The position numbers and the translations under genes are program-made. 64,000 nucleotides of DNA from the IMG/VR virus record IMGVR_UViG_641201351_000001, positions 64,001 to 128,000 of that record; one strand, 5' to 3'. The DNA comes from a virus. Taxonomy: Duplodnaviria; Caudoviricetes. Of this stretch, positions 37,974 to 56,188 are shown piece by piece. The first letter of the stretch is position 1; each line of letters begins with the position of its first letter. Below the pieces are notes generated by a model. That model ran no database searches and had not been told where the DNA came from. It saw only the letters and a program-made list of their open reading frames with translations.

Positions 37974-38137
37974 CTTTACCTCCTTGCCTACCCAAGGCGG
38001 GGTAGGCTATGCCTAGCCTATCACTACTGAACTATTTAGTCAAGGGGGCCTGGTAAGCAGAAGGAGAAGCGCACTAAGGAATAGGATAGCGTTTACTTAT
38101 TTTTTGCGGATTAAAAAAATAATCAAAAACATTTCGC

Positions 38138-38530
38138 TTAAAATAGCTCTCTAAATACTACCCTATCCTCAAGCTTTATGTCAAACTTCATCAGGTCTTC
38201 ATTTAAAAAGCAGTAAAAACTAATATATGCAAAAATGTGGTAGTCATTGTCTAACTTTTCTGTATTTTTGTTTTCAACGATTTTGTAAAGAAACTTTTCG
38301 TTGCGAATATCAGTATTTTTTGAGAAGATTTTTTCGTCATTAATACAGATGTCTACTTTTACCTTGTGAATCTTGTTCACTTGAGAGAGGATTTTTCTAT
38401 TAAGTTTTCGCCAAAAGGGAATAAGGCTACTATGTTCTTTCATACGATAAATAACTTCATCAGATTTTCTACATTGCGAAAGGTTTTGTAGTGTAAGTAC
38501 AACCTTTACAAATACTTCTTTTCTCTTCAC
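38138..38530 (-). CDS. array protein, C-terminus RELF
   Basis: GTG start directly after the upstream stop. Confidence 0.7.
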   Translation of the reverse strand: MKRKEVFVKVVLTLQNLSQCRKSDEVIYRMKEHSSLIPFWRKLNRKILSQVNKIHKVKVDICINDEKIFSKNTDIRNEKFLYKIVENKNTEKLDNDYHIFAYISFYCFLNEDLMKFDIKLEDRVVFRELF

Positions 38531-39076
38531 TTAAATCACCTCCTTATTAAGGCGAAGCTTCAAGATGATTTCCAGGAAAATGTACTCGTAAAAATAGTCA
38601 GAATATACTTTATATCCGTTATATGTATCAACTTTTCTTTTTCTATATATTGCGGCGTGGATTTCTGGTCTTTTAACATTATTTTCCAAAAGCTCCGGCA
38701 ACGCTTGTTTAAAGAACTCGTTAATATTTCTAAGAAGGTAATCCGAATATTTTTCATCATCATTGGGCAAAGCTTTGAATCTTTTTGGATTTAAACGCTT
38801 TCCACGAATATTTGTTTCAATGTTTATATAGAACATATTTTGCTCATTGGGTAAGAATGTGTGCAAGTAGCAATATAACTTTTCGGCATGCTCTAATACC
38901 TTACAGAAATCTTCAAACTTAGGATTTGAAACTATCCTCATTTTGAAGCTATCATAGATTTCCTTAGAATCTTCACCACCTATTTCGTTCATAAAGTAAT
39001 GTGAGGCACCAACATAATATTCGTCAAGATCAGCTATCATTTCCCATTTCCACGCCTCTTTGAGCTTGTCTTTCAC
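38531..39076 (-). CDS. array protein family d, C-terminus KEVI
   Basis: Paralog of 39077 (WKWEMI..L..YYVG.SHY, SNPKFED). Confidence 0.8.
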   Translation of the reverse strand: MKDKLKEAWKWEMIADLDEYYVGASHYFMNEIGGEDSKEIYDSFKMRIVSNPKFEDFCKVLEHAEKLYCYLHTFLPNEQNMFYINIETNIRGKRLNPKRFKALPNDDEKYSDYLLRNINEFFKQALPELLENNVKRPEIHAAIYRKRKVDTYNGYKVYSDYFYEYIFLEIILKLRLNKEVI

Positions 39077-39616
39077 TTAAATCACCTCCCTTAGCATTTC
39101 CAGATTTAAAGAAACTTCAAAAAGGACATACTCATAAAATAACGAATCCTCATAATCTTCAATGTCATCATCTTCTAACTGCACCTTACTTCTCCTGTAT
39201 ATAGAAGCATATATTTTAACATTCTTAATGTTATCTTTCAAAAGCTTTGGCAAGTTCTTTTTAAATACATGATTTATCCTGTTCATCATAAAATCTGAAT
39301 AGCTTTTCCACCTTCTGGGTGATACATAAGAAGTATAAGGCTTTGTGCTTCTAGAATATGGCTCTGTTTCAATGTCAATATACAATATGTCCTCCTCCTT
39401 GGGAAGAAAGGTTTGAAAATAGGCATAAAGGCTTTCTGCATGCTTTAAGTTTTTGTATAAATCTTCAAACTTAGGATTTGAAAATATTTTTATTGAAAAC
39501 TCGGCGTATACTTTCTTTGTATTTTCTTCATCAAACTCATCTACAACATAGTGAGAACTGCCAACATAGTAAGAAGATAGTTTAGTTATCATTTCCCATT
39601 TCCAGATTTTGTTCAT
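39077..39616 (-). CDS. array protein family d, C-terminus REVI
   Basis: Paralog of 38531. Confidence 0.8.
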   Translation of the reverse strand: MNKIWKWEMITKLSSYYVGSSHYVVDEFDEENTKKVYAEFSIKIFSNPKFEDLYKNLKHAESLYAYFQTFLPKEEDILYIDIETEPYSRSTKPYTSYVSPRRWKSYSDFMMNRINHVFKKNLPKLLKDNIKNVKIYASIYRRSKVQLEDDDIEDYEDSLFYEYVLFEVSLNLEMLREVI

Positions 39617-40107
39617 CAGAACACCCCCTTTATCGCAAGAAGAAGTTCTGTTTCAAATGTGGCATATTGAGTATATATTTCAGATATTTTGTGTCTTCTC
39701 TCAATACCAAGAAGCATCTTAATCTTTTTTGTGTTTTTTGAAACGATTTCTTTTAAAACATTCCTAAAATATTGGTTCATTTCAGAAACGATATAGTCTG
39801 CATAACTTACACAAGCTTTTACCTCTTTTACATAATCAGGGTGCAAAAGATACATGCCTTCTAAATAGGTTCTAATGAAAAATCTTTCATCACCATTTAA
39901 ATCCTCCACAAGATATAAATAAAAATCTTCTCCTTCTTTAAGGAGTTCATAAAGTTTTTCAAAGCTTTTGTCTTTTACGATTCTTTTTGAGAACTCATCA
40001 AAGATTCTAAAACTTTCTATTTCGCCGCCATCATCTATAATATAGGCATGACATTTTACAGACATCATTTCTATCTCAGATATTGAATCCCACAAAAGCT
40101 TTTGCAC
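39616..40107 (-). CDS. array protein family d, C-terminus KGVF
   Basis: More distant paralog (EFSxRI, FExLYxxLK, SYxDY); own promoter. Confidence 0.75.
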   Translation of the reverse strand: MQKLLWDSISEIEMMSVKCHAYIIDDGGEIESFRIFDEFSKRIVKDKSFEKLYELLKEGEDFYLYLVEDLNGDERFFIRTYLEGMYLLHPDYVKEVKACVSYADYIVSEMNQYFRNVLKEIVSKNTKKIKMLLGIERRHKISEIYTQYATFETELLLAIKGVF

Positions 40108-40450
40108 GGCTCACCTCCCAGGTCTAGGATAAGGCTCAAGAGGAGTCCAGTCAAGCCCACTCTAGGAAAAGATTTGATTTTGCATTTCAAACTTTTTATT
40201 TTTCGCTAAACACAAAATGAACTTCTACGCTAACATTTTTATTACTGCACCTTATTTTTGTAAACTACATAAAAAAATAGCTATTCTTCTAGTATCTTTG
40301 GTTTGGCTTGTGTTAAGGTTTAGGATTGCGTTTATTTTTTTAGCAAAAATCTTTAAGCTTTCTCACAAAAGTTCAATTTATGAGTAAACGCTTAATCATA
40401 GTTTGCGAAAAAAAAAATAAAAAATCATTAGAAGAAGGATTTCTTATAGT

Positions 40451-40702
40451 TTAGAAAATCTTTAGATGTTCTTCGTGCCTCCAAGAATTCCTTGAAACCC
40501 AAACATTTAGATTTGGATTATTTTTTATCAAGCTTTCGGCTGAAATTCCAAAATACTTTTCAAATACATCTTTAAGCTTCTTATTCAAATCTTCCTCATC
40601 AACATACTTGTCATTAATTAAAAGATCATATTCATCGATGTTCTTGAAGAATTCCTTGACAACCTTGCCTAGCGCTTCTTTGAGAGTCCACATTCCTATC
40701 AC
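40451..40702 (-). CDS. small array protein, C-terminus LKIF
   Basis: Own promoter and GGAGGTG SD. Confidence 0.7.
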   Translation of the reverse strand: MIGMWTLKEALGKVVKEFFKNIDEYDLLINDKYVDEEDLNKKLKDVFEKYFGISAESLIKNNPNLNVWVSRNSWRHEEHLKIF

Positions 40703-40802
40703 CTCCGATGCTCATCCTAGCAAAGGTGTGTCCTTTTGTCAAGCTCTCCTCTTCAATCAAGCGCACTCCTCTTCAAAGGTATTGCGAATTTTTTTCTAGC
40801 GC

Positions 40803-41279
40803 TTAAAAAACTTCGCTTTTTTCGTATTCTGTTCTTATGTTTAATTCATACTTAACATTTTTGCTATTGTTTTTATTGTTTGCTAGAATATTAAAAACCA
40901 AAATAAAAGTGCGGTCTGAAAGTGATTCGCTAAACTTTAAGAGTTTCTTGTAAGTCTTTATTACATATTCCTCATCTTGCTTATAATCAAAGTTCAATAT
41001 AACTTTCTTACTCATTGTTGTCTTTAATGTTCTTTCTTTCTTAGTTATATTTCTTTTTCCTGTAGCCTCAAAATAAATCTTCATTAGCGCTTTTGTATTT
41101 TCTTTTGAGATAGAGTTTTTGAGAATTTTAAAGTATTTTCTAAATAACGCCTCAATATCGTAAAGCTTTTCTTCTCTAAAATCAATTAGAAAAGCGATGC
41201 TTTTCTTCACTTCTTCTTTTTCTTTATTTGCGACAACTGAAAATACTAAATGATATTTCTTTGGTGCAAAAGGTGTCAT
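40803..41279 (-). CDS. array protein, C-terminus SEVF
   Basis: Leaderless: TTGACA-17-TAGCTT-6 nt-ATG. Confidence 0.75.
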   Translation of the reverse strand: MTPFAPKKYHLVFSVVANKEKEEVKKSIAFLIDFREEKLYDIEALFRKYFKILKNSISKENTKALMKIYFEATGKRNITKKERTLKTTMSKKVILNFDYKQDEEYVIKTYKKLLKFSESLSDRTFILVFNILANNKNNSKNVKYELNIRTEYEKSEVF

Positions 41280-41421
41280 GTCTTCAAGCTAACACAATAG
41301 CGAAACGCTGTCAAGCGTTGGTACACTAATAATAAAGTCTGGAAAGTCTAGACGATAGACACCTTGGTACACTATTACCAAAGTCTGGAGGATAGAGATA
41401 CTAGCTGAAATATTGACATAG

Positions 41422-41928
41422 TTAGACATAAGGAAAAGTTCTCCTAAACTTAGTCTTTAGTGAAAATTCAATTGTCTTTTCACCAGTAAAGAAGTGAGTT
41501 CCTAGAGAAAAGGTAAAACTTTTTGCATCTTTATTCTCAAAGATTCTATCTTGTGCTTTTTTAGTTGTAAGATAAAAGTCTTCAAGTAATGCGTTTACTT
41601 CCTTTGGTGAACCTAGAGTTTTGTATTCGATGTGTGAAGCATACTGATTTAATTTAAAGTTCACATCAAAAAAGGTTTCTTCGTAGATGCTTAGAATTAA
41701 TTTTGTTGGCAAGAATTTACTAAACAAATCTAGGAAAAGATTATAGGTTCTAAAAATCTCATCGCTATACAAATGAAAAGTGTGCAAGTGTTTTGTAGAC
41801 TTGGTTTTGAAGTTGATTGATTTGTTTATTTTTTTAATGTTACTTTCTTCTAGTGAAAGGATAACTTCTACTAATTCAAAGGCAGGATGACAATAAATTT
41901 TTACTTTATTTTCTTGCGTGCTTTTCAT
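41422..41928 (-). CDS. array protein, C-terminus FPYV
   Basis: Leaderless: TTGACA-17-TATACT-6 nt-ATG 41928. Confidence 0.75.
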   Translation of the reverse strand: MKSTQENKVKIYCHPAFELVEVILSLEESNIKKINKSINFKTKSTKHLHTFHLYSDEIFRTYNLFLDLFSKFLPTKLILSIYEETFFDVNFKLNQYASHIEYKTLGSPKEVNALLEDFYLTTKKAQDRIFENKDAKSFTFSLGTHFFTGEKTIEFSLKTKFRRTFPYV

Positions 41929-41968
41929 GTTTTGAGTATATGCGATTTGCTTTTTGTTGTCAAGTGTG

Positions 41969-42520
41969 TCAGAACACATCTTTTGTTTTTTTAAGAACTA
42001 AGGCTGCTTTAAGGATATAGTAGAAGTGTTTTGACTCCTCTACAGACGATTTTATGATCAAATAGTTGTATACAAAAATTAATCTAGCATTTCGTACAAT
42101 CGCTTGTTTTGTAGATTCGTTTAGGTTTTCGTTTATTTTTGAAACAAACAAGCTTAAATTTAGGTCTTCAATATAATCTTTTTGCTGTTTGTATTCTACT
42201 GAACGAATATCGTTGTTTTCGTCTTCAATTCCTTCTACTAATGCGAAGAATGTAGTTTTGCCTTGAGGATTTCTTGCTTTGTTCGCTAAAAATCTTTTAA
42301 ACAGCTTTATTACATCATAAGTTCTCATTAGCGAAACAGTATTTTTTGTTTCGTTGTAATTAAAATCATTTCTATTAAACCTTTCTTCCTCTGCTGCCAA
42401 AGTAAAAAAGCTTTCTATTACTTCTTCTTCTGATTTATCTTTATTGGTGTAGTGTATATAAAAGCACAACGAAAAATTATCTAGTTCGTAAGGATAGGTA
42501 TTGATTAACTCAAAAGACAT
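41969..42520 (-). CDS. array protein family i, C-terminus KDVF
   Basis: Paralog of 42510 (E.IN..P..L, SLFxxxxN). Confidence 0.75.
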   Translation of the reverse strand: MSFELINTYPYELDNFSLCFYIHYTNKDKSEEEVIESFFTLAAEEERFNRNDFNYNETKNTVSLMRTYDVIKLFKRFLANKARNPQGKTTFFALVEGIEDENNDIRSVEYKQQKDYIEDLNLSLFVSKINENLNESTKQAIVRNARLIFVYNYLIIKSSVEESKHFYYILKAALVLKKTKDVF

Positions 42521-43076
42521 CTTTGCCTCCTTCAAAAGAAAGCGTTAATTTAAACAAATTAGTCGAGTTTATAGCAGCTTCTTTTGCTTTGTATTTGTAA
42601 GAAAGATAAGATATCACTTCAAATTCTTTAGCTTCGAAGTAAAAGACTTTAGGCAGTCCTTGTGCGATATATTTGTTTAGGTTTTCGCTAAATAGCGAAA
42701 TAGAAAATTCTTTTATTGGCGTTTCTATCTTTATCAGCTCATGTTCGTCAAGGTATGCGCATTCTGCAACACATGTCATTTCAAAGTAAAAGAACCTTTC
42801 TTTAATAAACTTTTTATCTTTTGAGAAATAGTCTTTCGCAAAATTTTCAAACATATCACGAATTTTTTCTTCTCCTTTTAGAATAAACAAGTTTCTTTCT
42901 TCATCAAAGTCGATGAGATTTTCTCTTAGTTCTATGTAGTTGTCAATAGCGCCAATTTTTTCATATCCTCCATTAATTCTTGAATAAAACTTAGAGAAAT
43001 GTTCAACCTTTGCGCTTTTAAGCGAAAAAGGAACAAAGTTATTAATTTCAATCGCTTTGCTTTTTTCCTCTTTCAT
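42510..43076 (-). CDS. array protein family i, C-terminus KDVF
   Basis: GGAGGTG SD gives the start MKEEKS. Confidence 0.75.
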   Translation of the reverse strand: MKEEKSKAIEINNFVPFSLKSAKVEHFSKFYSRINGGYEKIGAIDNYIELRENLIDFDEERNLFILKGEEKIRDMFENFAKDYFSKDKKFIKERFFYFEMTCVAECAYLDEHELIKIETPIKEFSISLFSENLNKYIAQGLPKVFYFEAKEFEVISYLSYKYKAKEAAINSTNLFKLTLSFEGGKDVF

Positions 43077-43089
43077 GCTCACCTCCTTC

Positions 43090-43539
43090 TCAGAACAGCT
43101 CATCTCTTACTAGTCTTACTGATATGTCTACAGAACGCTTCTTTCTTGATAGCTCATTATCTAAAAACTCAACGTAGATCGTCATGTAAAATATAGCTTT
43201 TGGAAAGTCTTTGTTTTTGCTCAAAATGTCGTATAAAGTGTTTCTTATTTCATTCGTTATGTCAAACTTAAAAATTTCTTCTAAAGAGTAAGACTTTTCG
43301 TAGTCGTGAATTATTTCTTGCTTTTTGCTAGGTTCAGGATAAATCATAAAGAAAGACAAAACAACAGAAAATATTCCTGCTTTTTTTGCCTTTGCGATTA
43401 TAAAGTCATCTCTTAGTTCTCTTCTAATGATTTCAAATTCGTTAAGAAATTCTTCATAATTTTCAAAGTCTTTTTCTTCGTTAAGATGTCTTAGCGCTAT
43501 TGTAGCGCTTTCAAATTTAGCGAAAGGCAAACCTAACAT
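43090..43539 (-). CDS. array protein family f, C-terminus DELF
   Basis: Paralog of 45328 (NYEEFL.E, SY.LEE.F..DITN.I.N.LY). Confidence 0.78.
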   Translation of the reverse strand: MLGLPFAKFESATIALRHLNEEKDFENYEEFLNEFEIIRRELRDDFIIAKAKKAGIFSVVLSFFMIYPEPSKKQEIIHDYEKSYSLEEIFKFDITNEIRNTLYDILSKNKDFPKAIFYMTIYVEFLDNELSRKKRSVDISVRLVRDELF

Positions 43540-43551
43540 GTTCGCCTCCTT

Positions 43552-44046
43552 TCAAAACAAGTCTTCGTGCATATAGAAGAAGTTTTTGCTGAGATGAAAT
43601 ATTAAATTAGAATTTTCAAAAAACATATCTACATCAATGAAAATGCTTTCGCTTCCTGTTACTAAAGCGCCAAAGCGAAGCATTGAATAAGATGCTTTTT
43701 CAAGAAATTCTTTGATTTCTTCGTAATTCTTTAATGCGAGGTTTTCTTTATAAGACGCTTTAGGAAACATTTCTTTGTAATAGCATCTAATCTCAACCTT
43801 ATATTTTTCGATGTCAAATTCTCGCATGAGATTGAAAAATTTGTCTTTAAAAGACAACGCTTTTCTGCTATTAGTAAAGACTAAACCTTCTTCATTTTTC
43901 TTAAGAACATTTTTTGTTCTTTTAAGAACGACTTTTTCTTCAAAATTTCTTCTGTAGTCGTCTGTCTTATCAATAACAAAGAAGCTTATTTTTACTTTTT
44001 CAAGCTTGTAAGGAATTTCTTCTTTCACAAAGAAGTCAAGTTTCAT
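43552..44046 (-). CDS. array protein family e, C-terminus EDLF
   Basis: Paralog of 44772 (FVKEExPYK, NSxKAL). Confidence 0.78.
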   Translation of the reverse strand: MKLDFFVKEEIPYKLEKVKISFFVIDKTDDYRRNFEEKVVLKRTKNVLKKNEEGLVFTNSRKALSFKDKFFNLMREFDIEKYKVEIRCYYKEMFPKASYKENLALKNYEEIKEFLEKASYSMLRFGALVTGSESIFIDVDMFFENSNLIFHLSKNFFYMHEDLF

Positions 44047-44140
44047 TTTGCACCTCCTCTTGCAGAGGGGATTATACAACGGGACAGGACGCATGTCAAG
44101 GCCTCAGGAGTTAATTAAAAGACATTTAATTTCACTAGAG

Positions 44141-44644
44141 TTAAAAAGGATCATTTCTCGCTATACGAATTGTCATTTCTAGATTTGTTTTTACATCTGA
44201 ATCGTAGTTGTCTTTTATTGACTCGTAGATTAAGTAAAACGAAAAAGAAATCTCATAAAAGCTAGGAATTTCTTTCATAGTTTTCTTAACAATCTTTTTC
44301 AAGGTTGACTTAATATTTAGCGAACTGAAATTCTCAATGTTGTAGTGAACAGGCTCAACCTGATAGAAATCTCTTTCTTGTTGACCTGACAACAAATCTT
44401 TAGCATAAAAGTAAACAGAATAAAAATGATAAGCATTAAAATGCAAGTTTGCTATTTCTTCTTTTTGTTTCAAAGACTTAAAGATATTTAGTTCTTTTAT
44501 TATCCTTTTGTGAAGCAGTCTAAAAGCGCTGATAAATTCAGAAAAGTTTGAAGTGTTTAGATGATAGTTCTCAACAGATGTTTCTTTGTCTTTTCTAGCG
44601 AAAGACAACTTTGCGCTATTTACTTTCGCATAGCTAGTCAACAC
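44141..44644 (-). CDS. array protein, C-terminus NDPF
   Basis: Own promoter and GGAGGTG SD; GTG start at ~44644. Confidence 0.72.
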   Translation of the reverse strand: MLTSYAKVNSAKLSFARKDKETSVENYHLNTSNFSEFISAFRLLHKRIIKELNIFKSLKQKEEIANLHFNAYHFYSVYFYAKDLLSGQQERDFYQVEPVHYNIENFSSLNIKSTLKKIVKKTMKEIPSFYEISFSFYLIYESIKDNYDSDVKTNLEMTIRIARNDPF

Positions 44645-44771
44645 AACGCACCTCCTCTCAAGCTCTAGGATAAGCGCTATAGGACGCTTTGTCAAGAGTC
44701 TAGTGTCGTCAACTAAGCGAAGCGAAATAAGGCTTTATCTTGCGTGAAAATCTTATTTAAACTTTAATTCG

Positions 44772-45290
44772 CTAAAACACGCTTAAAAACTTGTACTTTA
44801 AGGATGTGTTAAAAGAAAACACTAACGAAAATTCATCTATGTCAACATAAAGATCCTTTCCTGAAGTCAAAATGAAATTGTTAAGGTTTAGTTTAAGCGC
44901 TTCTTTTATCGCTAGCGAAGAAAAACTTTTAAGAATTTCTTTGCTTTCTTCTAGTTTGCTTAGTTTGTGATTTTGCTTTAAGAAGACTTTGAAATTTGGA
45001 TCCTCATAAAATGCAGAAACTTTAAAATCGTAATGCTCAATATTAAAAAGTTCTAAGGCGTTGAAAAAATGTTTTCTAAGTTCTAAAGCTTTTGTGCTAT
45101 TAATAAACAGCAGATCTTCTTTATCTTTTCTAAATTTCTTTTTGTTTGGCGTAAATATTAATTTTTCTTTTCGAACTAATTTTCTAGAATAGCTAATTCC
45201 ATAACTGACTTCTTTTTCGATGTAAAAATAAAGGCTAACTCTAGTGATTTTGTAAGGCATTTCTTCTTTGACAAAAAGCTCAAACTTCAT
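44772..45290 (-). CDS. array protein family e, C-terminus LSVF
   Basis: Paralog of 43552. Confidence 0.78.
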   Translation of the reverse strand: MKFELFVKEEMPYKITRVSLYFYIEKEVSYGISYSRKLVRKEKLIFTPNKKKFRKDKEDLLFINSTKALELRKHFFNALELFNIEHYDFKVSAFYEDPNFKVFLKQNHKLSKLEESKEILKSFSSLAIKEALKLNLNNFILTSGKDLYVDIDEFSLVFSFNTSLKYKFLSVF

Positions 45291-45327
45291 CTTCCACCTC
45301 CTTAGGAATGTCCTTCCTGGTGGTTCT

Positions 45328-45819
45328 CTAGAAAGGAAAATTGCTAACAACTTCTACTGAACACGATATGGACTGTTTTTTGTAAATTTCCTTATTTTTA
45401 AAATAAGCTGCATAAATCAACAAATTAAATTGCGCCTTTGAAAAAAATCCACAGGTTTTTAAAGCTTTATATAAGAGATTTTCAATGCTGTTTGTTATAT
45501 CAAGGTCAAAAACTTCCTCTAGTTTGTAAGATTCTCCAGAGATATATTCTCCAAAGAGGTCTAAGTCATCAATGAGGAGTCCTTTCTCTATTGGTAAATA
45601 GATAAGGTCAGAAAAAGAGATGGCATTTATCTCTAAATTATTTCCTTTAGCAAAAAGATATTCATCTTTTACTTTGTTAATATGGTTTTTAAGCTCCATT
45701 AAAAATTCTTCATAGTTGCGAAAACTTTTGGCTTCTTCTAAAGCAAAATCTTTTTTTATCTTCTTAGAATATTCTGTTTTGACATAAGCGATTTTGAATT
45801 CTGTGAAGGCTAACCTCAC
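45328..45819 (-). CDS. array protein family f, C-terminus NFPF
   Basis: Paralog of 43090. Confidence 0.78.
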   Translation of the reverse strand: MRLAFTEFKIAYVKTEYSKKIKKDFALEEAKSFRNYEEFLMELKNHINKVKDEYLFAKGNNLEINAISFSDLIYLPIEKGLLIDDLDLFGEYISGESYKLEEVFDLDITNSIENLLYKALKTCGFFSKAQFNLLIYAAYFKNKEIYKKQSISCSVEVVSNFPF

Positions 45820-45997
45820 GCTACACACCTCCCCTCTGCTACCCCAACTATAAGCCTCACAAGGCCCTATGTCAAGGGGGGGTTAGTGTGTTTTTACTAG
45901 AAGAAGCACGGCGAGGCTTTTATTGTGAGTGAAATCTTGTTTAAACATTTTTGGGTGGTACACTATTATCCAAGTCTGGAAGGACAAACAAACAACG

Positions 45998-46513
45998 CTA
46001 GAAAACCTCATTACCCTTCTTGTATTCAAACTTCACTACGAAGAGTTTTTCTGTGCTTTCAACTTCTTTGTTTGCTAGTAGTCCCTGTAGAAGCGTAGGA
46101 AACTTGATGATAGTTGCATTAAAGCGAAAGTAGTAAGTAATGCTCACCATTCCTTCTCTTAAAGCTTTTATTGTGATAGATTTTCCAAATAGGTTTATCA
46201 TTGAAGCGAATTCGTTTTCATTAAAGTTTGCAATTATGTTGTTTTCTTTACAAATGTAAATCGGCAGAGAAACTAGTTTGTAAGGTGAGAACATTAAGTA
46301 GGAGAACTCAAAAGATGAGTCTACTTTTACTAGTCCAGACTTTGAAGATAGGTCTTTTTTAAATTCCTCTAAGTAGTATTTGACTTCTTCAAAAAAGTTG
46401 TAAAAATCAAAATAATCTTTGTATAGTGATTGTTTTAATGCTTTTTTATTTTTTGCCTCCTTGTAGAGAATTGTGATAAAATCTAAGGAGTAAGGAAGAA
46501 AGCTCTCAAACAT
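45998..46513 (-). CDS. array protein, C-terminus NEVF
   Basis: Own promoter adjacent to motif B. Confidence 0.75.
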   Translation of the reverse strand: MFESFLPYSLDFITILYKEAKNKKALKQSLYKDYFDFYNFFEEVKYYLEEFKKDLSSKSGLVKVDSSFEFSYLMFSPYKLVSLPIYICKENNIIANFNENEFASMINLFGKSITIKALREGMVSITYYFRFNATIIKFPTLLQGLLANKEVESTEKLFVVKFEYKKGNEVF

Positions 46514-46560
46514 GTCTTTATCCTCTCGCTTGCGATAATATCGCCTAAATCATAGGCAGG

Positions 46561-47145
46561 TCAAGAGGTTGGTACACTATTATAGGAATCTGGAAGATAC
46601 TCACTAACAGCGAAAGAATAAAGAAATACTATCTCTAGATAAGGATAAAGAAGTTCAAAGTATTTGTATCTTCCTCTAGCAAACGATGCTACTATTTCGA
46701 CACCTTCAAGATTTTCGTTTAATTCTTCTTCTGTATTATTCAAGAAGTTTTCTTTTTCTTTAATTAAAGCGTTATAGACATTTTCAACTGTTGTGTTTCT
46801 TCCTAGGTTTACTTCTTTGATTTCAGGAATGTAGCTCAAGGTCTTTTCTTTCATGTTCTTTATTTGTTTGTGATAAATCTTGACGAAAGAAAGCGTTAAA
46901 TAGAGGTCAAGAGAGAAGTTTGCGTTTAGAACTTTGTCTAAAGATAAAGTTTTTTTGATGAATGTCTTTATGATAAAAGACAGCTTTTCTTCACAAAATT
47001 CTTTTTTGCGAGTATCTAATTCAACATAGATCAAGGTTCTTTTTGATGTATTTCTTATTTCCAGCTTTGATAGCTTTCTTATTTCCAGAGAAGAGCCGCT
47101 ATCAAAGTGTATTGTTGCTTTTTCTAGTGTGATGTTCGTCTTCAT
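46561..47145 (-). CDS. array protein family h, C-terminus LPDSYNSVPTS encoded by motif B
   Basis: Paralog of 48165 (FIKxT..xxKxL, KE.E/RN.L, LE.V..Y). Confidence 0.78.
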   Translation of the reverse strand: MKTNITLEKATIHFDSGSSLEIRKLSKLEIRNTSKRTLIYVELDTRKKEFCEEKLSFIIKTFIKKTLSLDKVLNANFSLDLYLTLSFVKIYHKQIKNMKEKTLSYIPEIKEVNLGRNTTVENVYNALIKEKENFLNNTEEELNENLEGVEIVASFARGRYKYFELLYPYLEIVFLYSFAVSEYLPDSYNSVPTS

Positions 47146-47156
47146 GTTTCTTTACC

Positions 47157-47654
47157 TCAGAATAAGACATTAAACTCAAAAGAAACTTCTATGCGCAAAT
47201 CTTGTGAAATAGTCGCTTTATTAGTTTTTAACTTTGCGAAAGATAAAAAGAAGACATTGAGCGTTTTTTCTTCTTTAATAGCATATTTATAGCGTTTATT
47301 AATTTCACGCTGCATTAGACTAAAAATCTTTTGTTCACTAAATTCTTCTAAGCTAATAAACTTCTTTCCTAAGCGCTTTCTTAGCTCTTTGTAAGGCATA
47401 TCGAAATAATAATCGCTTGATAGCAAAGATACGACTGCAAAATGTCCTAATTTGAAAAAAGGCGAATTAAAGTATCTTTTTAAAATCTCAAAACTCCTTG
47501 AGAAATTAGTAAACGCTTGATCAAAGAATTCGCTTCTTTCTTCTTCAAAAAACTCAGTTTTCCTAGTTGAAAGAAGGCTATCGTTAATCAAATATTCTTT
47601 TATAAACCTCAAACTTTTAGGTTTTTGCAGCGAAAAAAGCTCTTCGATTTTCAT
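47157..47654 (-). CDS. array protein family g, C-terminus NVLF
   Basis: Paralog of 48689 (KR...S..F..G.F.V.SL.S, EEFSE). Confidence 0.78.
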   Translation of the reverse strand: MKIEELFSLQKPKSLRFIKEYLINDSLLSTRKTEFFEEERSEFFDQAFTNFSRSFEILKRYFNSPFFKLGHFAVVSLLSSDYYFDMPYKELRKRLGKKFISLEEFSEQKIFSLMQREINKRYKYAIKEEKTLNVFFLSFAKLKTNKATISQDLRIEVSFEFNVLF

Positions 47655-47662
47655 GCTCTCAC

Positions 47663-48133
47663 CTAAAAGACTTCTTTTCTTTCTAGAGTAGCTTCTACTT
47701 CTAGAAAGACTTTATCAAGGTTTCTTGTTAGATAGCCTAGTTCTATGAAGATTACTATTGCAGTAATTTCTTTTTCGTTCCTAAACGCTTCATTGTAAAT
47801 TTGACTTATGCTTCCTTCAATAAATTTTAGGACTGACTTTTTATTAACGAAAGAAGTATTTTTAACGCCCAAATCTTCAAATTTAGGTGTTCCGTTTTTT
47901 GTATTTGTGATTAGTGTATAGTGTATTTTTAAAATGTCTTGCACAACATCGCCTTCAGAATTTTTTGTTTGCTGATAGTATTTTGAAATGAAACCTTTAA
48001 GGTACTTATAAAAGTCTTTAGCTTTTTCTTCTTTAAGTATCTTTTTAAACGAAAAATTATTTTCTTCATCTTTTGAGTTTTTAAAGTATTCAAAGGCAAA
48101 CTTCACTTTCACGAATTCAAAAGGCGCTAGCAT
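47663..48133 (-). CDS. array protein, C-terminus KEVF
   Basis: Leaderless: TTGACA-17-TAGCAT-6 nt-ATG. Confidence 0.75.
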   Translation of the reverse strand: MLAPFEFVKVKFAFEYFKNSKDEENNFSFKKILKEEKAKDFYKYLKGFISKYYQQTKNSEGDVVQDILKIHYTLITNTKNGTPKFEDLGVKNTSFVNKKSVLKFIEGSISQIYNEAFRNEKEITAIVIFIELGYLTRNLDKVFLEVEATLERKEVF

Positions 48134-48164
48134 AGCTTCATGCTAGCACGACAAGTCAATCGTG

Positions 48165-48677
48165 TCAACTTGGTACACTATTACTAAAGTCTGGAAGATG
48201 TACTATGTCGTAGTAGTATACAACCTCTAGAGATGCAACATGATCATCCTTATAAGGTGATCCTTTAGTGAAGATTATTGAAATGATAATCTGATCCTTT
48301 TTGTCTATGTTTTTTAGCTTTAACAGCTTTGTTAGCAATTCGTTTCTTTCTTTGAGGATTGTCTTAAGCACTTCTTCTGGTTTTATATCGTATCCAAGAG
48401 GTTTTTCTTTAGTATCAAGGTCTTCTTTCCTCATGTTGTGATTGACTGCTAAATAGAAATCTTCGTCTTCATATACTTCAAGAAGTTTTTCAATTTCTAT
48501 TGTTTGTTTTATAAACTTAAGCATTAGTTGAATTGCTTTTTCTTCTAGTTCTTTTTCTTCGTGATCTTTGTTGAAGGTAAATTTGTATTTATTTTCTGCT
48601 GCTTTTAAAAGTCCTTTTGACGCAGCAAAAGACTCCTGTAAGTAAAAAAGTGCGATTTCGCTGAGCTTCAGTTTCAT
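48165..48677 (-). CDS. array protein family h, C-terminus LPDFSNSVPS encoded by motif B
   Basis: Paralog of 46561; its stop codon lies within the next gene's -35 box. Confidence 0.78.
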   Translation of the reverse strand: MKLKLSEIALFYLQESFAASKGLLKAAENKYKFTFNKDHEEKELEEKAIQLMLKFIKQTIEIEKLLEVYEDEDFYLAVNHNMRKEDLDTKEKPLGYDIKPEEVLKTILKERNELLTKLLKLKNIDKKDQIIISIIFTKGSPYKDDHVASLEVVYYYDIVHLPDFSNSVPS

Positions 48678-48688
48678 CTCTTCTCCTT

Positions 48689-49195
48689 TCAAAAAACGCC
48701 GTGCAAAGAGTAGTGCATTTTCAAGAACAATTTTTTTACTATCAAAGATGTTTCTGTCTTTAGCGCAACAAAGAACATAGATTCTAATGATAGGTTTTCG
48801 TTATTTAACAAAGCTTCTCTGTATTTCTTGTAGAAGCATTCTTCTGCTAAACGAGAAAATTTTTCTTCGCTAAATTCTTCAATTCTATAAACATTTTCAG
48901 GAAATCTATCTAGCAGACTTTTTTCTCTGCCATAAATCTCAAAATATTCTTCAGAAAAACTTCCTAAAGAAAAAACTACAAAATAGCCTTTGTGAAAATA
49001 CTTTGACAACACAAACCTTTTGACGATGTTTAACTGCTTCAAAAATACAGCATTAAAGCTTTCAATTTCTTCTTCTGGAAAATTGTAGTAATATTTCTGC
49101 TTTCTAGCTTTAACAAATTTTTTCTTCACGAAGTGCTCAGTCGACACTTCTACGAAAAATATTTTGTGTGTTTTAATCAAGTCTTCAATGCGCAT
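48689..49195 (-). CDS. array protein family g, C-terminus HGVF
   Basis: Paralog of 47157. Confidence 0.78.
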   Translation of the reverse strand: MRIEDLIKTHKIFFVEVSTEHFVKKKFVKARKQKYYYNFPEEEIESFNAVFLKQLNIVKRFVLSKYFHKGYFVVFSLGSFSEEYFEIYGREKSLLDRFPENVYRIEEFSEEKFSRLAEECFYKKYREALLNNENLSLESMFFVALKTETSLIVKKLFLKMHYSLHGVF

Positions 49196-49201
49196 AACAC
49201 C

Positions 49202-49720
49202 TCAAAAGCTAGGAAGAACAATGTCGTTTATTTTTATCGTGTAAGGAGGCTTTAAAGAAAAGATGTGTTCTATTTCTAAAACCCAAACTTTTTCGCTTTG
49301 TTTTATTTCAAAAACTATTCTTGGCGCTATAGATATCGTGTAATCGTTAAAGTTTGTAATATTTTTTCTTATTTCATTTAGTGTTTTTTCTGTGCTTTCA
49401 ATCATTTCATAAGCTTTCTCTTTGAGAAAAAACGAAAGCTTCTTTTTCTTGTCTGACAAAATTTCGTCTTGTTTAATGTTTTTTATGTCCTCGAAGTAAA
49501 ACCTTGTTTTTCCTAAAACATAGCCTCTATAATTGACGAATATGTAAATAGAGATTGTCTTTACATCCTGCTTTAGCGATTTCAATACAAAGCTATCAAG
49601 CGTTTTAATAAGTTTGTCTTTTTCATTCACAGAAAAAACAACATTTGATGCATTCGTGTAGCTAAAGAAGGGTTTGTATATTCCTTTCTTTGTGATTAAG
49701 CAAAGCCTTTCTAATCTCAC
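49202..49720 (-). CDS. array protein, C-terminus LPSF
   Basis: Own promoter adjacent to motif B; GGAGGAG SD. Confidence 0.75.
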   Translation of the reverse strand: MRLERLCLITKKGIYKPFFSYTNASNVVFSVNEKDKLIKTLDSFVLKSLKQDVKTISIYIFVNYRGYVLGKTRFYFEDIKNIKQDEILSDKKKKLSFFLKEKAYEMIESTEKTLNEIRKNITNFNDYTISIAPRIVFEIKQSEKVWVLEIEHIFSLKPPYTIKINDIVLPSF

Positions 49721-49851
49721 TTTTCTCCTCCACAGAAGAAATCATAGAACACAAACCTAAGGCTGTCAAGCGTTGGTACACTATTAATAAGTCTGGAAGA
49801 TGTAAATGACTGACACTTGAAGACTAGGTGTCTATATGCTAGTATGTAGCT

Positions 49852-50388
49852 ATGCATCCTCAGGAAGGTTGGCTTTTTGATGAGTTTGTCTTCTTGAGAA
49901 GAGCGTTTTCTCATTGTTCATATGTTGACAGCAATAACATAGTTCGTGATTATCAGGAAGAAATTGAAAGCTTAGAAAAACTAGAGGCTATTGTTGAATT
50001 AGCAAAGGAAAAATTAAAAGAATATCATAAAGAATTAAAGGAGCTAATTAGGTTTGGATTAAGAATAGAAGAAAATTTTCATTTAATCGCTATAGCAAAC
50101 TTTTATAAGAGGTCATTAAGACACAAGTACGATAGAAAGTTAACGCTTGACGAAGTAATGTCTTTTTCTATTAGAGATGCGATAGACGAAACTATATCGC
50201 ACTTCTTGAGATTTTGTGAAATTGAAGATTTATCTTTGATTTTGAGCTTGAAGTTTCCTTATTTGTCTGTTTACAAGCCTATGTTAATTTCTAGAGCTTA
50301 TGATTGTTTTATGATGATTCCTTATACTTCACAGCTTTTTCACATTAGCGCTGAATTTCTCGTTGATAAAAATTTGCTTGTTTTCTAA
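49852..50388 (+). CDS. inverted array protein, C-terminus LLVF
   Basis: Leaderless TTGAAG-17-TAGTAT-6 nt-ATG; resembles 50385 and family f (LAK.....xxEL, LxEv.s.sI...I). Confidence 0.72.
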   Translation: MHPQEGWLFDEFVFLRRAFSHCSYVDSNNIVRDYQEEIESLEKLEAIVELAKEKLKEYHKELKELIRFGLRIEENFHLIAIANFYKRSLRHKYDRKLTLDEVMSFSIRDAIDETISHFLRFCEIEDLSLILSLKFPYLSVYKPMLISRAYDCFMMIPYTSQLFHISAEFLVDKNLLVF

Positions 50389-51032
50389 AAAAATTCTTCT
50401 ATTTCAGCGATTAAAGAATAATCGAACAAATTTGGTTCGCTTAAAATCTTCACTATCTCTCTAGTGTGTTTGTCAAATATTTTAGTATCTATTTGTTTTG
50501 TGTTTGTCGAATAAAGATCTGATGAAATTTCTTCATCGAAAACATTTAATCGAAAATCAAACTTGAACCGAAAGGAAATTTTTGACATTAAGCCAAAATT
50601 TTTAAGAAAATACATCGTTGCTTTTTCTAACTCTTTTTTTAGAGATAAGGAAGGAAGTTCAGAAAGCTTGTATTCTTTTTTCAAGTCAAATCCTTTGTCT
50701 TCTCCATAGAAGGCTAAAGCGCTAAATTCTAAAGATTCAAAAGTAACGACATTTAATTTGTTGTTGCTGCTTTGATTTCTTACTACTCGTTTTATATTAT
50801 TTAATTCACGATTAAACATCTTAGCTCTATCTTTAGCGAGATTAAAGAAGTTTTTTATTTCTTCAAACACATCACAGTAGTTTGGAAAAAAGTAGCTAAA
50901 TTTTACTTCGCTAAACTCGCAAGAATTTTTTGCAGGCAACTTCTTATCTGCTTTCTTTTCTAGGTAGCTTATGTAGACGAAGCCTCTCGTGAAATTTAGT
51001 ATGTCAAAGGCGCTGAAGGACACTTTAAACAC
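50385..51032 (-). CDS. array protein, C-terminus EEFF
   Basis: GGAGG SD; stop overlaps convergently with 49852..50388. Confidence 0.75.
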   Translation of the reverse strand: MFKVSFSAFDILNFTRGFVYISYLEKKADKKLPAKNSCEFSEVKFSYFFPNYCDVFEEIKNFFNLAKDRAKMFNRELNNIKRVVRNQSSNNKLNVVTFESLEFSALAFYGEDKGFDLKKEYKLSELPSLSLKKELEKATMYFLKNFGLMSKISFRFKFDFRLNVFDEEISSDLYSTNTKQIDTKIFDKHTREIVKILSEPNLFDYSLIAEIEEFF

Positions 51033-51154
51033 CTCCCTCCTACCTCTCTAGTATAGAGGCTAGGCGCAAAGCTGCCAAGCCTTTATTTTTAGGGTAAGCC
51101 TTATTTAAAAGTTTAAACATTTGCTAGATAAAAATCTTTTATGTTCATTATCTC

Positions 51155-51724
51155 TTAAACGCTAGGATGAGGAGTTGGTACACTATTGTATAAGTCTGGA
51201 AGGTTGAATAAATGCTGCCCAAGATCTAAGACTTTGTATTTCAGTTTAAAGACAGAACTGTAGGGAGTTTTGTGTCTTGATCTTTCGTGAGAAGATAAGC
51301 TAACAACAAGATCAAATCTAGTTAAAGGAATTCCTTTTCTTAGACTAAAGAATTCAATTAGTTCTTCTATTGAATCCTCGATGAAGAAATAAAACGCATT
51401 TTTTATTCTCTTTTCATTTGGCATTACTAGCCTCGCAAATTGAATTTGCTTAGACATTTCTAAATCTAGCTTGCATTCTTTGTTTTTTCCTAGTGAATAG
51501 ACATTTATGCTTTTTGAGATCGTTAGGTCAAAGTCTTTCTTAATTATTGCTTTTGACAATACTTTTTCTATAAGCCTCTCTAAAGAGTTTTTATTTTTCG
51601 CTGATATTTCTGCTAAATAATGAAACTTAAACTCTTCAAGGTTCTTTTCATTGAAATACTCGTAGTTTATTTCGATTTGATTAAGAAAAAAGGTTTGCTT
51701 GTTGATTTTGATAAGTTCTTTCAT
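51155..51724 (-). CDS. array protein, C-terminus LPDLYNSVPTPHPSV encoded by motif B
   Basis: Third protein reading through motif B. Confidence 0.75.
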   Translation of the reverse strand: MKELIKINKQTFFLNQIEINYEYFNEKNLEEFKFHYLAEISAKNKNSLERLIEKVLSKAIIKKDFDLTISKSINVYSLGKNKECKLDLEMSKQIQFARLVMPNEKRIKNAFYFFIEDSIEELIEFFSLRKGIPLTRFDLVVSLSSHERSRHKTPYSSVFKLKYKVLDLGQHLFNLPDLYNSVPTPHPSV

Positions 51725-51726
51725 CT

Positions 51727-52257
51727 TCAGATCTCAATTTTTTTTCTTTCAAAATACACTAAAAACCAAATGACATACTTTTCAGGAAAAGGTATTGTTT
51801 TATTTTTAAAGCTTGCGACAATTCTTTGCGCAAAAGATATCTTCAAGGTCTTGTTTTCGTATATGCAGTCTTTAAACATGCTATTTTCGATTATCTTTTC
51901 TATTCTTTCAGAAATCATTTTTGATAGGTCTACTTCGCTGACATCTTCAATGAATTCTTTGTTTGAACCTAGAAAATTTGTTAAATTTTTTATTCTCTTT
52001 TTCTTTTGTCCTTGTACTTCAATTTCAACATCATTAGCGATGACGACATCTAAATTCTCTTTTTTGATTTCTTTGAATGTTTTAGCGAGAAATTTTTTTG
52101 CAGCTTCAAAGTCTTCTGAAACAAACTTTCTTTGGTTGAATAATTCGTTTGTAAGGCCGCTAAAATCAATTCTTCTATAAATGCTAACTGCACAATTTTT
52201 CATTAAAAATCTTTGTTCGCCTAAGTCTTTGTTATAAAACAAAAGCTCTTTTCTCAT
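51727..52257 (-). CDS. array-like hypothetical protein
   Basis: GGAGG SD gives the start MRKELL. Confidence 0.7.
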   Translation of the reverse strand: MRKELLFYNKDLGEQRFLMKNCAVSIYRRIDFSGLTNELFNQRKFVSEDFEAAKKFLAKTFKEIKKENLDVVIANDVEIEVQGQKKKRIKNLTNFLGSNKEFIEDVSEVDLSKMISERIEKIIENSMFKDCIYENKTLKISFAQRIVASFKNKTIPFPEKYVIWFLVYFERKKIEI

Positions 52258-52270
52258 CCTAGACCTCCTC

Positions 52271-52693
52271 TTATGTGTAATCTTTAAAGACTTCTTCATC
52301 TAGCGCTCTTTCAAACTCTTCTTTAGTGAGCGTTATAATCTTTCCTTCCTCAAAGAAGTGAATGCGCTTGAAGTCTAATTCATTTAATATGCTTGCGCAA
52401 TACAAGCAAGGTCTAGTATTCTTAAGAAGGTTTTTTCTGTAGCCGAAAACAAAAATATCACTAGGATAAAAGTTTTCTTTTCTAGCCTTGTGAAAAAAGT
52501 CTAACTCAGCGTGAAGCGCTGAAAAGTGAGGATAGTCGTATTTAACTTGCTTGCTGATGATGTATTTATTTTCGCCAATTAGAATTTCTTTTCTATTTAC
52601 GCCAACGCAATACATCTTCACTTTGCCTTTTGGTATATTCGCATCTCTTTCTAGCAAAATATTCATTAGACGAAGTAAACGCTCAATCTTCAT
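52271..52693 (-). CDS. zinc-dependent cytidine/dCMP deaminase-superfamily protein
   Basis: LHAE and RPCLYC motifs; TAGACA-17-TATTAT-7 nt-ATG 52693. Confidence 0.8.
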   Translation of the reverse strand: MKIERLLRLMNILLERDANIPKGKVKMYCVGVNRKEILIGENKYIISKQVKYDYPHFSALHAELDFFHKARKENFYPSDIFVFGYRKNLLKNTRPCLYCASILNELDFKRIHFFEEGKIITLTKEEFERALDEEVFKDYT

Positions 52694-52700
52694 GTGCGTC

Positions 52701-52743
52701 ATAATAACACACGCTTGACAGAATGTCTAGCTTGCTTTATAGT
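52701..52743. promoter_or_regulatory. overlapping divergent sigma70-type promoters
   Basis: + strand TTGACA(52715)-17-TATAGT; - strand TAGACA(52729)-17-TATTAT. Confidence 0.75.
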
Positions 52744-52763
52744 AGGAGTTGCAATGAGGGGAG

Positions 52764-53474
52764 GTGTTTACCTTGCTGAAGTTAGGCGCACTAGACCTAG
52801 GCTCAAGAAGACAGATGATTGTAAAAGGAGTCGTAGAAGACGATGTACTGATAGTTAAAAGCTACAACTATTCTTACATTGAAGAGGAAGAAAAGAAAGA
52901 AAAGATTAGAAAGTTAGACGAGTTTTTAGAGAACAATGTTTTAAATGAAGACCTTGATACAATCATTTTAGAAAGAAGATTTAAAGACAAAAGAAAAAAT
53001 AAAATACTAACAAAAAAAGAAGGATACAAAACTAACATAGATGCGTTTATCACTTTAAGCGAATACGCTAAGAACAAACTTTTGAAAAGCAATATAAAGT
53101 TGCTAACAGTAGAAGCTAGTAATATTGAAGCTTTTAAAATAACGAGAAGAAAAGGAAACTTTTCTTCACCAGGCTGGAAGCAAATTCTTACTGGAATCAA
53201 TAAGCCTAACGACAAAGAAATTGAAAAAGAAATAAACAGTCTTGTAAATAAAGGAAAAATCATATACGAAGTAAACATTGAAGATTTACTTGCGCAAAAA
53301 GTTAAATTTTACATAGACTTCATTGACGCTGTAGGAATGCTTTATGCATACATTAAAAAACCAGAAATTTATGCGTTAGAAGAACAAAATGATAACAAAG
53401 AACCTGAAGCAGACTTATACGAAGAAATTACAAAGGAGTTGTCAAAAAAACTTCTTGGCCCAATAGTGTCTTGA
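52764..53474 (+). CDS. RuvC-like (RNase H fold) nuclease / Holliday junction resolvase candidate
   Basis: ALDLG at the N-terminus, IILER, GWKQ, DFIDAV; the real start may be TTG 52773 after GAGGTG. Confidence 0.65.
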   Translation: MFTLLKLGALDLGSRRQMIVKGVVEDDVLIVKSYNYSYIEEEEKKEKIRKLDEFLENNVLNEDLDTIILERRFKDKRKNKILTKKEGYKTNIDAFITLSEYAKNKLLKSNIKLLTVEASNIEAFKITRRKGNFSSPGWKQILTGINKPNDKEIEKEINSLVNKGKIIYEVNIEDLLAQKVKFYIDFIDAVGMLYAYIKKPEIYALEEQNDNKEPEADLYEEITKELSKKLLGPIVS

Positions 53475-54005: not shown

Positions 54006-54074
54006 TCTTTATTCACTATAGCACAAGACCTTTATATCGTCCTGCACGCAAAAATTAAGATTTTAAAAGTGAAA

Positions 54075-54400
54075 CCTTGATTTTTGGGCAAAATTGGGGG
54101 TTTTATTTTCTTATGTCGATTTTCCTATAGGCGAAACAAAATTATAGGGCGACATAAAATCAAAATCTTTGATTTTTGCTAAAAATTGAAAGTTTTATTT
54201 TTTTATAAGATTTTCCTATAAGCGAAATAAAACTTTAGGTGGTGTGAAAATAAAAATCTTTGAATTTTGCGCAAAATTGAAGGTTTTAAAATTTCATAAG
54301 GTTTTGCTATAGGTGAAATAAAAAACTGAAAGAACAAAAAACTAAAATCTTTGATTTTTTGGCGAAATTAAAAGTTTTAAAATTTTGTAAGGTTTTATAG
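54075..54400. repeat. 91-92 bp tandem repeat, about 3.5 copies, with phased A/T tracts
   Basis: Units start at 54075, 54167, 54258 and 54349 (C(C/T)TTGA(T/A)TTTTG..AAAATT...GTTTTA...TTTTCCTATAGGCGAAA). Confidence 0.85.
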
Positions 54401-56022: not shown

Positions 56023-56099
56023 TGGTGGGGCGTGTAGGACTCGAACCTACAACCAATCGGTTATGAGCCGACCGCTCTCACCGCTTGAGCTAACGCCCC
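56023..56099 (-). tRNA. tRNA with CAT anticodon (Ile2-like; elongator Met not excluded)
   Basis: GGGGCGT TA GCTC..GAGC G GTCGG CTCATAA CCGAT..GTAGG TTCGAGT CCTAC ACGCCCC A CCA; full cloverleaf with encoded CCA. Confidence 0.92.
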
Positions 56100-56111
56100 A
56101 CGATTATTATT

Positions 56112-56188
56112 TGGCGAGGGGTGCAGGACTTGAACCTGCAACCTAGGGATTAGAAATCCCTTGCTCTGTCCTGTTGAGCTAACCCCTC
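56112..56188 (-). tRNA. tRNA-Arg(TCT)
   Basis: GAGGGGT..AGGGA TTTCTAA TCCCT..GCAGG TTCAAGT CCTGC ACCCCTC G CCA. Confidence 0.93.

Follow-up and report, generated by a model that had tools for sequence, protein, structure and literature searches.

What is the function of a short DNA sequence that returns again and again, always in one orientation, beside promoter-like sites and at gene ends of a phage gene array? This question is raised by motif B, which an earlier note, made from the letters of one DNA stretch, had described as seven copies of 28 bp and taken for either a class II activator/operator site or a recombination site that swaps C-terminal protein tails. The window, i.e., the whole stretch of 64,000 nucleotides analyzed here, corresponds to bases 64001 to 128000 of a 152,372-bp virus record, whose whole genome is labeled G000. 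We propose that motif B is a protein-binding control site at early-promoter cassettes, that it doubles as a short homology for recombination, and that the protein tails it encodes are by-products; we assign this reading as a whole a probability of about 0.45.

An 8-kb query from the motif region was 96.8% identical to Thermus phage TMA and 81.9% identical to Thermus phage YS40_Isch (Isch below), and the genes of Isch are annotated as "similar to YS40_110 ... YS40_142", a series whose order agrees with that of the open reading frames (ORFs) of the window. We infer that the window belongs to Thermus phage phiYS40 or a near-identical isolate, and it is called YS40 hereafter. The comparison covered YS40, TMA, Isch, an IMG/VR relative of 157,225 bp (G001) and metagenome contigs; YS40, Isch and G001 are about 20% diverged from each other. 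Gene numbers (for example, g126 for 46561..47145) were derived from gene order against the Isch annotation. Searching with the helicase for distant relatives gave 2 IMG/VR loci, both near-identical, and nothing else.

On the gene (minus) strand, the consensus of motif B reads YTTCCAGAC, then a variable, T-rich center of 4 to 6 nt, then AATAGTGTACCA(A/C), giving 26 to 28 nt overall. The motif collection holds 33 copies from five sources, 26 of them distinct, and in these 26 the information content is about 2 bits per position across both arms and 0 to 0.5 bits at most flanking positions. The arms are of mixed sequence; they form no palindrome and no clear direct repeat and are not complementary to each other. 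Because the center is 4, 5 or 6 nt long, no reading frame can be held on either strand, which also ruled out plus-strand coding of the motif. Allowing up to 3 mismatches, the window contains 7 matches (1 + 6), all on the plus strand as written, compared with 0 in 100 shuffles. A looser pattern run over the whole 152,372-bp record gave 8 forward matches, 0 reverse matches and 0 for the reversed-pattern control, so that all eight copies share a single orientation. The seven places previously listed all hold a copy, six of them with the right start; the one placed at 45956 starts at 45955. The copy at 49773 is 27 nt long and the remaining six in the window are 28 nt. The copies are as follows.

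41318 to 41345, minus strand: copy c41318, with the gene-strand sequence TTTCCAGACTTTATTATTAGTGTACCAA; outside coding sequence; the -35 box of promoter-like site P116 follows after 3 nt
41364 to 41391, minus strand: copy c41364, in tandem, 46 nt upstream of c41318; 30 nt past the stop codon of ORF 41422..41979
45955 to 45982, minus strand: copy c45955, non-coding; 15 nt past the stop codon of ORF 45998..46513; 79 nt upstream of the -35 box at 45875
46569 to 46596, minus strand: copy c46569, translated as LPDSYNSVPT where ORF 46561..47145 ends; TTGACC follows after 4 nt; stop codon inside the -35 box
48170 to 48197, minus strand: copy c48170, translated as LPDFSNSVP where ORF 48165..48692 ends; TTGACA follows after 1 nt; stop codon inside the -35 box
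49773 to 49799, minus strand: copy c49773, 27 nt, outside coding sequence; between divergent promoters, with a minus-strand TTGACA 3 nt away and, at 17 nt, the plus-strand TTGAAG that belongs to ORF 49852..50388
51175 to 51202, minus strand: copy c51175, translated as LPDLYNSVPT shortly before ORF 51155..51724 ends; TTGGCA follows after 96 nt, at 51078
Genome positions 25324 to 25351 (L047:1525-1552), outside the window: the 8th copy, between divergent promoter-like sites

The most striking regularity of these copies is their position relative to promoter-like sites. Four of them lie 1 to 4 nt from a minus-strand -35 box, as had been noticed before, with gaps of 3, 4, 1 and 3 nt (CCAA-cgc-TTGACA at c41318, CCAA-cctc-TTGACC at c46569, CCAA-g-TTGACA at c48170 and CCAA-cgc-TTGACA at c49773). 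Given 62 TTGAC[AC] hexamers on the minus strand of the window, the chance that at least 4 of 7 copies abut one is P = 7.8e-9. In all four abutting copies the -35 box is followed by a spacer of 17 to 18 nt and a TAnnnT -10 box, promoter assignments being consensus matches throughout. The other four of the eight copies have a promoter-like site 39 to 96 nt downstream (79 nt for c45955, 96 nt for c51175 and 39 nt for the 8th copy), c41364 standing in tandem before c41318 and its promoter, and the distances of these non-abutting copies to the -35 box are conserved in orthologues. The promoter-like sites concerned are listed below.

41286 to 41314, minus strand: P116, TTGACA, 17 nt, TAGCTT; 6 nt to the ATG at 41279, a leaderless layout
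46535 to 46564, minus strand: P125, TTGACC, 18 nt, TATTAT; Shine-Dalgarno-like GAGAGGA, then ATG at 46513
48140 to 48168, minus strand: P128, TTGACA, 17 nt, TAGCAT; 6 nt to the ATG at 48133, a leaderless layout
49741 to 49769, minus strand: P131, TTGACA, 17 nt, TATGAT; GGAGGAG, then GTG at 49720
45847 to 45875, minus strand: P124, TTGACA, 17 nt, TATAGT; the next promoter after c45955
51050 to 51078, minus strand: P133, TTGGCA, 17 nt, TATACT; the next promoter after c51175
49817 to 49845, plus strand: promoter-like site of ORF 49852..50388, TTGAAG, 17 nt, TAGTAT; 6 nt to the ATG

A -35 box TTGACA together with a -10 box has been described as characteristic of phiYS40 early promoters (PMC9324360), and the phage is described as dependent on the host RNA polymerase. 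At c49773 and the 8th copy, the flanking promoters diverge, and no gene precedes the copy on its own strand. The genes on either side of the 8th copy, whose promoter-like sites are leaderless and point away from each other, encode a DEAD/SNF2-type helicase and a 478-amino-acid (aa) protein with weak archaeo-eukaryotic primase (AEP) and helix-turn-helix (HTH) matches. We also considered motif B as a promoter core of its own, with TAGTGT as the -10 box, and rejected it: the -35 position would fall outside the conserved block, and the conserved part would be spacer.

Comparison among relatives reveals that the arms, and not their surroundings, are what is kept. In 19 orthologue pairs from YS40, Isch and G001, the 22 arm positions were identical in 400 of 418 comparisons (96%), compared with 594/800 for the 40 nt upstream and 597/800 for the 40 nt downstream (about 74%) and 82/114 for the center. 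The difference between arms and flanks gave a Fisher P of 1.6e-26, with pairs that are not independent, and the arm conservation holds at seven orthologous places. The earlier note had named copies no better conserved than their flanks as the outcome that would speak against it; with arms at 400/418 and flanks at about 74%, the opposite was found, and motif B is thus a DNA-level element and not a decayed gene end. Single copies illustrate the same. At c46569 both flanks are unalignable among YS40, Isch and G001 while the arms are intact, and at c51175 similarity on the downstream side ceases about 8 nt past the motif. The copy number is 8 in YS40 and in TMA, 6 plus one copy split by an insertion sequence (IS) in Isch, and 6 plus one degenerate copy in G001, at the same relative places; at the c41364/c41318 site, YS40 and TMA carry an extra 46-nt motif unit where Isch and G001 have a single copy.

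The conservation between paralogous cassettes is equally confined to the motif. The proteins of ORFs starting at 46561 and 48165 are 28% identical and those of ORFs starting at 47157 and 48689 are 29% identical, and at E < 0.01 the modules g130-g129-g128 and g127-g126-g125 match in their DNA at just two places, the motif and a 39-nt coding stretch. With 28 to 29% protein identity, the two modules are ancient duplicates. As side observations, of the 18 nt that precede c41318 (41346 to 41363), 12 are identical to those preceding the 8th copy, and CTAGAC recurs beside several motif copies and beside the -35 box at 44695; distant copies may have undergone ectopic exchange, or a further small element may be present here.

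Beyond these phages, little was found. Among 50,697 phage records, only 3 Thermus records cover at least 80% of the 46-nt query. In prokaryote genomes, searched with the exact pattern only, 40 scattered single matches were obtained, none of them titled Thermus. The metagenomes yielded G001's own contig, a relative (L094) and three singles (L093, L095 and L098), and the singles, having imperfect arms and unrelated flanks, were treated as chance. A further 38 IMG/VR stretches with single matches were left out of the comparison. No description of motif B turned up in the titles and abstract openings of the YS40 and Thermus promoter literature, a scope that stops short of the primary phiYS40 and TMA papers. 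Motif B appears, on these searches, to be confined to the phiYS40 group.

The arm-specific conservation, the free center and the recurrence at seven orthologous places argue for sequence-specific recognition of double-stranded DNA, and the location of the copies, next to -35 boxes or between divergent promoters, suggests a role in promoter control. We suggest that motif B, a two-armed DNA element specific to lineage and strand, marks where some early promoter cassettes of the host sigma-A type (-35/-10) begin on their upstream side, and that a sequence-specific DNA-binding protein, most likely phage-encoded, would sit on it and modulate the adjoining promoters, whose early class, like the direction of any regulation, we infer. 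The abutting copies would occupy about -37 to -67, where class I activators, the C-terminal domain of the polymerase alpha subunit (alpha-CTD) and upstream operators act. Two candidate binders may be named: a 136-aa Myb-like HTH protein (genome positions 16640 to 17050) and the 478-aa AEP-primase-like/HTH protein beside the 8th copy. The variable spacing and the four distant copies would favor such a separate binding protein over a rigid contact with RNA polymerase. Four copies thus share with class I activator sites, operators and upstream promoter (UP) elements the location at about -37 to -67 relative to the start and a fixed orientation to the promoter, whereas motif B differs from them in being neither A/T-rich nor palindromic, in its variable spacing and in the distance of half of its copies, and its binder is only a candidate. 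The class II activator site proposed earlier is not supported, because such a site overlaps the -35 box with its center near -41.5, whereas the element ends 1 to 4 nt upstream of the -35 hexamer, spans about -37 to -67 and is centered near -50 to -54; the four of eight copies lying 39 to 96 nt from a promoter also disfavor it.

Where relatives have gained or lost genes, the change often stops at a motif copy or close to one. The gene array is hyperplastic, with whole genes (g121, g124, g126 and others) present or absent among the four genomes, and homology breaks fall within 100 nt of a motif in 6 of 22 cases against about 2.4 expected (P = 0.025, breaks clustered by hand). Contig L094, with 98.4% identity to G001, has no g125 homologue: a single hybrid motif joins what lies downstream of c45955 to what lies upstream of c46569, and the switch point falls in this motif or in about 14 nt of similarity that extends it. 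In hot-spring contigs, g126, the motif and P125 are absent as one unit, and one of these contigs has the motif and TTGACA directly upstream of g127 (47157..47654). Since the arms are the only near-identical DNA shared by the diverged paralogous cassettes, they could serve as short homology, through which recombination would add, remove and re-join genes as a side effect; the phage encodes UvsX-like and Erf-like proteins, which the TMA annotation lists together with an HTH DNA-binding protein.

As to the array itself, the minus strand from 38531 to 52299 carries a long series of ORFs of 150 to 215 aa, which fall into PHROG families without function, have no Pfam match and mostly end in Phe; the paralogue pairs or groups are g126/g129, g127/g130, g120/g124, g121/g123 and g112/g113/g114. 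The gene g124 with its own promoter (45328 to 45828) is absent from TMA, Isch and G001 and present in contigs of all four metagenome runs examined.

A known system with a similar logic is that of the promoter-early stem-loops (PeSLs) of T4-like phages, described as repeated early-promoter cassettes of the sigma-70 type with a stem-loop terminator and an A/T-rich upstream region, of which about 50 per genome have been reported (Arbiol et al. 2010, PMC2839356; Comeau et al. 2014, PMC4122927). Motif B would resemble them as a short repeated regulatory cassette with early promoters of the sigma-70 type, four of its eight copies abutting a consensus -35/-10 pair and four lying 39 to 96 nt from one; it resembles them in lying within a hyperplastic array of small genes annotated without function, and in its location directly after the stop codon of the upstream gene. 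As with PeSLs, indels and replacements between close relatives end at copies, namely in the whole-gene indels, the 6 of 22 breaks, L094 and the hot-spring contigs described above. PeSLs are described as exchanged by homologous recombination between copies, neighboring ones also giving rise to mini-circles, and by analogy homologous exchange on the one sequence that they share best accounts for the recombination at motif copies. The differences are that a PeSL is defined by a promoter plus a stem-loop, whereas motif B is a two-armed sequence upstream of the -35 box with no shared stem-loop, lies up to 96 nt from the promoter and has only 8 copies against about 50.

Several points weigh against the combined proposal of a control site that doubles as recombination homology. 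Four of the eight copies stand 39 to 96 nt from a promoter, and both the arm spacing (by 2 bp) and the gap to the -35 box (by 1 to 4 nt) vary, which is unusual for a site facing RNA polymerase precisely. G001 retains c46569 without any -35-like hexamer after it, and five consensus-like promoters of the same gene array lack motif B. A passage of a review states that the analysis of YS40 yielded no transcription factors (PMC4124052). On the recombination side, the enrichment of homology breaks near the motif is weak, because breaks fall in intergenic DNA anyway, and the clustering was done by hand. L094 ends 20 nt past its junction, so that an assembly artifact is possible. Several motif-to-motif joints in the comparison with metagenome contigs are multi-mapping artifacts: the joints 45982 to 48205 and 41175 to 49774 and the rows in which an alignment goes back were rejected as deletions, the relative's copy having been aligned to the more similar paralogous copy.

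The same promoter geometry admits an explanation without a dedicated factor, in which motif B would act like a UP element: the host RNA polymerase, through alpha-CTD or the neighbors of sigma region 4, would contact the arms and strengthen early promoters. The arms of the four abutting copies lie at about -37 to -49 and -56 to -64, where Escherichia coli promoters have their proximal and distal UP subsites; furthermore, early genes must be transcribed by unmodified host polymerase. However, UP elements are A/T-rich tracts fixed at -38 to -59, whereas the arms here are of mixed sequence, with a gap of 1 to 4 nt in four copies and of 39 to 96 nt, conserved in orthologues, in the other four. In addition, none of the 40 scattered prokaryotic matches to the exact pattern is titled Thermus. 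We consider this explanation improbable.

We regard as equally doubtful that motif B is the core site of a dedicated site-specific recombinase, an enzyme that would cut out and insert the cassettes between copies in the manner of integrons. The copies, all in direct repeat, bracket one to three genes, L094 lacks exactly one bracketed gene, the tandem copy of YS40 and TMA is single in Isch and G001, and an IS607-like element lies inside one Isch copy. In the same way as integron attC sites, the copies stand in one orientation at the 3' ends of serial small genes. However, motif B has neither inverted-repeat core sites nor the imperfect inverted repeats or consistent hairpin fold of attC, and the crossover is not at a fixed point: in L094 the homology that contains it comprises the motif and about 14 nt more, the pattern that homologous exchange would leave. 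It also counts against a recombinase site that many array indels lack a motif at both ends. In the first 50 kb of TMA and, apart from IS, in the arrays of TMA and Isch, the annotation lists neither an integrase nor a recombinase, the rest of the genome being unscreened. As to the IS, the element of Isch (L002:10884-12561) sits inside the c49773 copy and keeps only the HTH part of its small ORF, while that of TMA (L003:12952-15077) interrupts the g134 homologue at a place without motif; both have the ends TATT...GGGGGAC and are inserted just before TA, and a transposase search found no relative. Because the TMA element of the same family sits at a motif-less place, we do not claim that IS target the motif, and this placement is a further point against a recombinase site. 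The earlier proposal of a recombination site is supported in that copies lie at recombination and indel junctions; no motif-specific recombinase was found.

A third possibility, which we rate as unlikely to the same degree, moves the signal to RNA: motif B would be a processing, stability or factor-dependent termination site in read-through transcripts that separates early units. Its orientation strictly follows the direction of transcription, the copies stand at gene ends before the next promoter at variable distance, and a variable arm spacing is more easily tolerated in RNA. However, no shared secondary structure emerged from 7 folded copies (Z-scores from -2.8 to +1.4, with the motif paired differently in each), Rfam 15 gave 0 matches at E <= 1 in 40500 to 52500, and a terminator scan of 38000 to 53000 detected no G+C-rich hairpin with a T run at any motif copy. 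The two copies without an upstream gene on the same strand also fit poorly. Separately, a stem-loop of 11 pairs (GTGCTAGCAT / ATGCTAGCGC) spans 48124 to 48149 on the minus strand, over the -10 box of P128 and the ATG of ORF 47663..48133, and is followed by CTTTTG. It is conserved in Isch and G001, and P128 is the only motif-adjoining promoter with such a stem. The stem would form only in read-through RNA and would resemble the promoter/terminator overlap of PeSLs.

What, then, of the protein tails? Three ORFs do read through the motif in the same frame, as the earlier note had seen, ending in LPDSYNSVPTS (46561..47145), LPDFSNSVPS (48165..48692) and LPDLYNSVPTPHPSV (51155..51724), and ORF 49202..49720 likewise ends in LPSF as described. 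This shared frame is found in YS40 and TMA. In Isch and G001, the orthologues of g129 (48165..48692) stop immediately before the motif, and those of g134 (51155..51724) end in LPDL*, because a 26-nt motif variant creates a TAA; g126 is missing from both genomes, and a short ORF of Isch runs through c46569 in another frame. Copies outside coding sequence, or read in other frames, are as well conserved as the rest. Since the motif DNA is kept whatever its coding status, the LPDxxNSVP tails are by-products, and on the sequence evidence they are incidental: upstream ORFs happen to reach the element before a stop codon. The suggested swapping of C-terminal tails finds no support either, the tails being unconserved even between orthologues and the L094 recombinant having lost a whole gene and not a tail. 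For annotation, LPDxxNSVP should thus be treated with caution, as read-through into a regulatory element and not as a protein motif.

Because arm 1 with the first center bases spells LPDF, near the C-terminal Phe of the neighboring paralogue family, an origin of the motif from a gene end is possible. That the copies are non-functional remnants of duplicated gene ends (LPDF-type C termini), alike through recent duplication or gene conversion, is very improbable: this LPDF, the LPSF of 49202..49720 and two neighboring G001 copies that differ at one position only would suit it, but arms at 96% against flanks at 74% across genomes about 20% diverged and at seven orthologous places, a center that varies between the arms where gene conversion would not have spared it, paralogues at 28% protein identity that still carry the motif, and the equal conservation of non-coding and differently framed copies all oppose it.

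Some further features of the genome were recorded beside motif B. The -10/-35 class of early promoters, like leaderless middle and late transcripts, was reportedly recognized in a 2007 study of phiYS40. Many ORFs genome-wide (for example, at genome positions 150256, 84609 and 80743) have TG-n-TAAAAT upstream and a start codon 6 to 8 nt later, with no -35 box; this layout is a leaderless extended -10, distinct from the TTGACA class. A plus-strand promoter within motif B was rejected on this comparison, since the middle- or late-like sites (TGnTAAAAT, 6 to 8 nt, ATG) are unlike motif B on either strand. The GTAC in motif B was also dismissed as a restriction or methylation target, GTAC being only mildly depleted (200 observed against 323 expected). 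Other palindromes are avoided genome-wide (observed versus expected: CGCG, 1 versus 119; ACGT, 25 versus 224; TCGA, 79 versus 249; GATC, 205 versus 420), and this strong avoidance suggests escape from restriction. Four tandem units of about 91 bp, A/T-rich, 70 to 83% alike and non-coding, occupy 54072 to 54414 and are possibly an origin or iteron-like region. On the minus strand, 56023 to 56188 carries genes for tRNA-Met (CAT) and tRNA-Arg (TCT).

Returning to motif B as a control site, a more specific form of the proposal can be put forward, which we hold to be speculative and rather doubtful. Motif B may be the operator of a phiYS40 DNA-binding regulator (e.g., the Myb-like HTH protein) that switches early cassettes, including the divergent helicase and primase-like replication genes; it would then represent a missing layer of transcription control, searches for RNA-polymerase-binding factors having found none, and would also be the cassette exchange point for early-gene shuffling in a lytic thermophilic phage. 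In practical terms, a DNA signal of 22 positions, 96% identical at seven orthologous places, could serve as bait for a DNA-binding regulator active at 65 to 70°C. For the wider biology of these phages, the cassette-boundary logic known from the PeSLs of T4-like phages would have an independent and structurally different counterpart in a Thermus myovirus.

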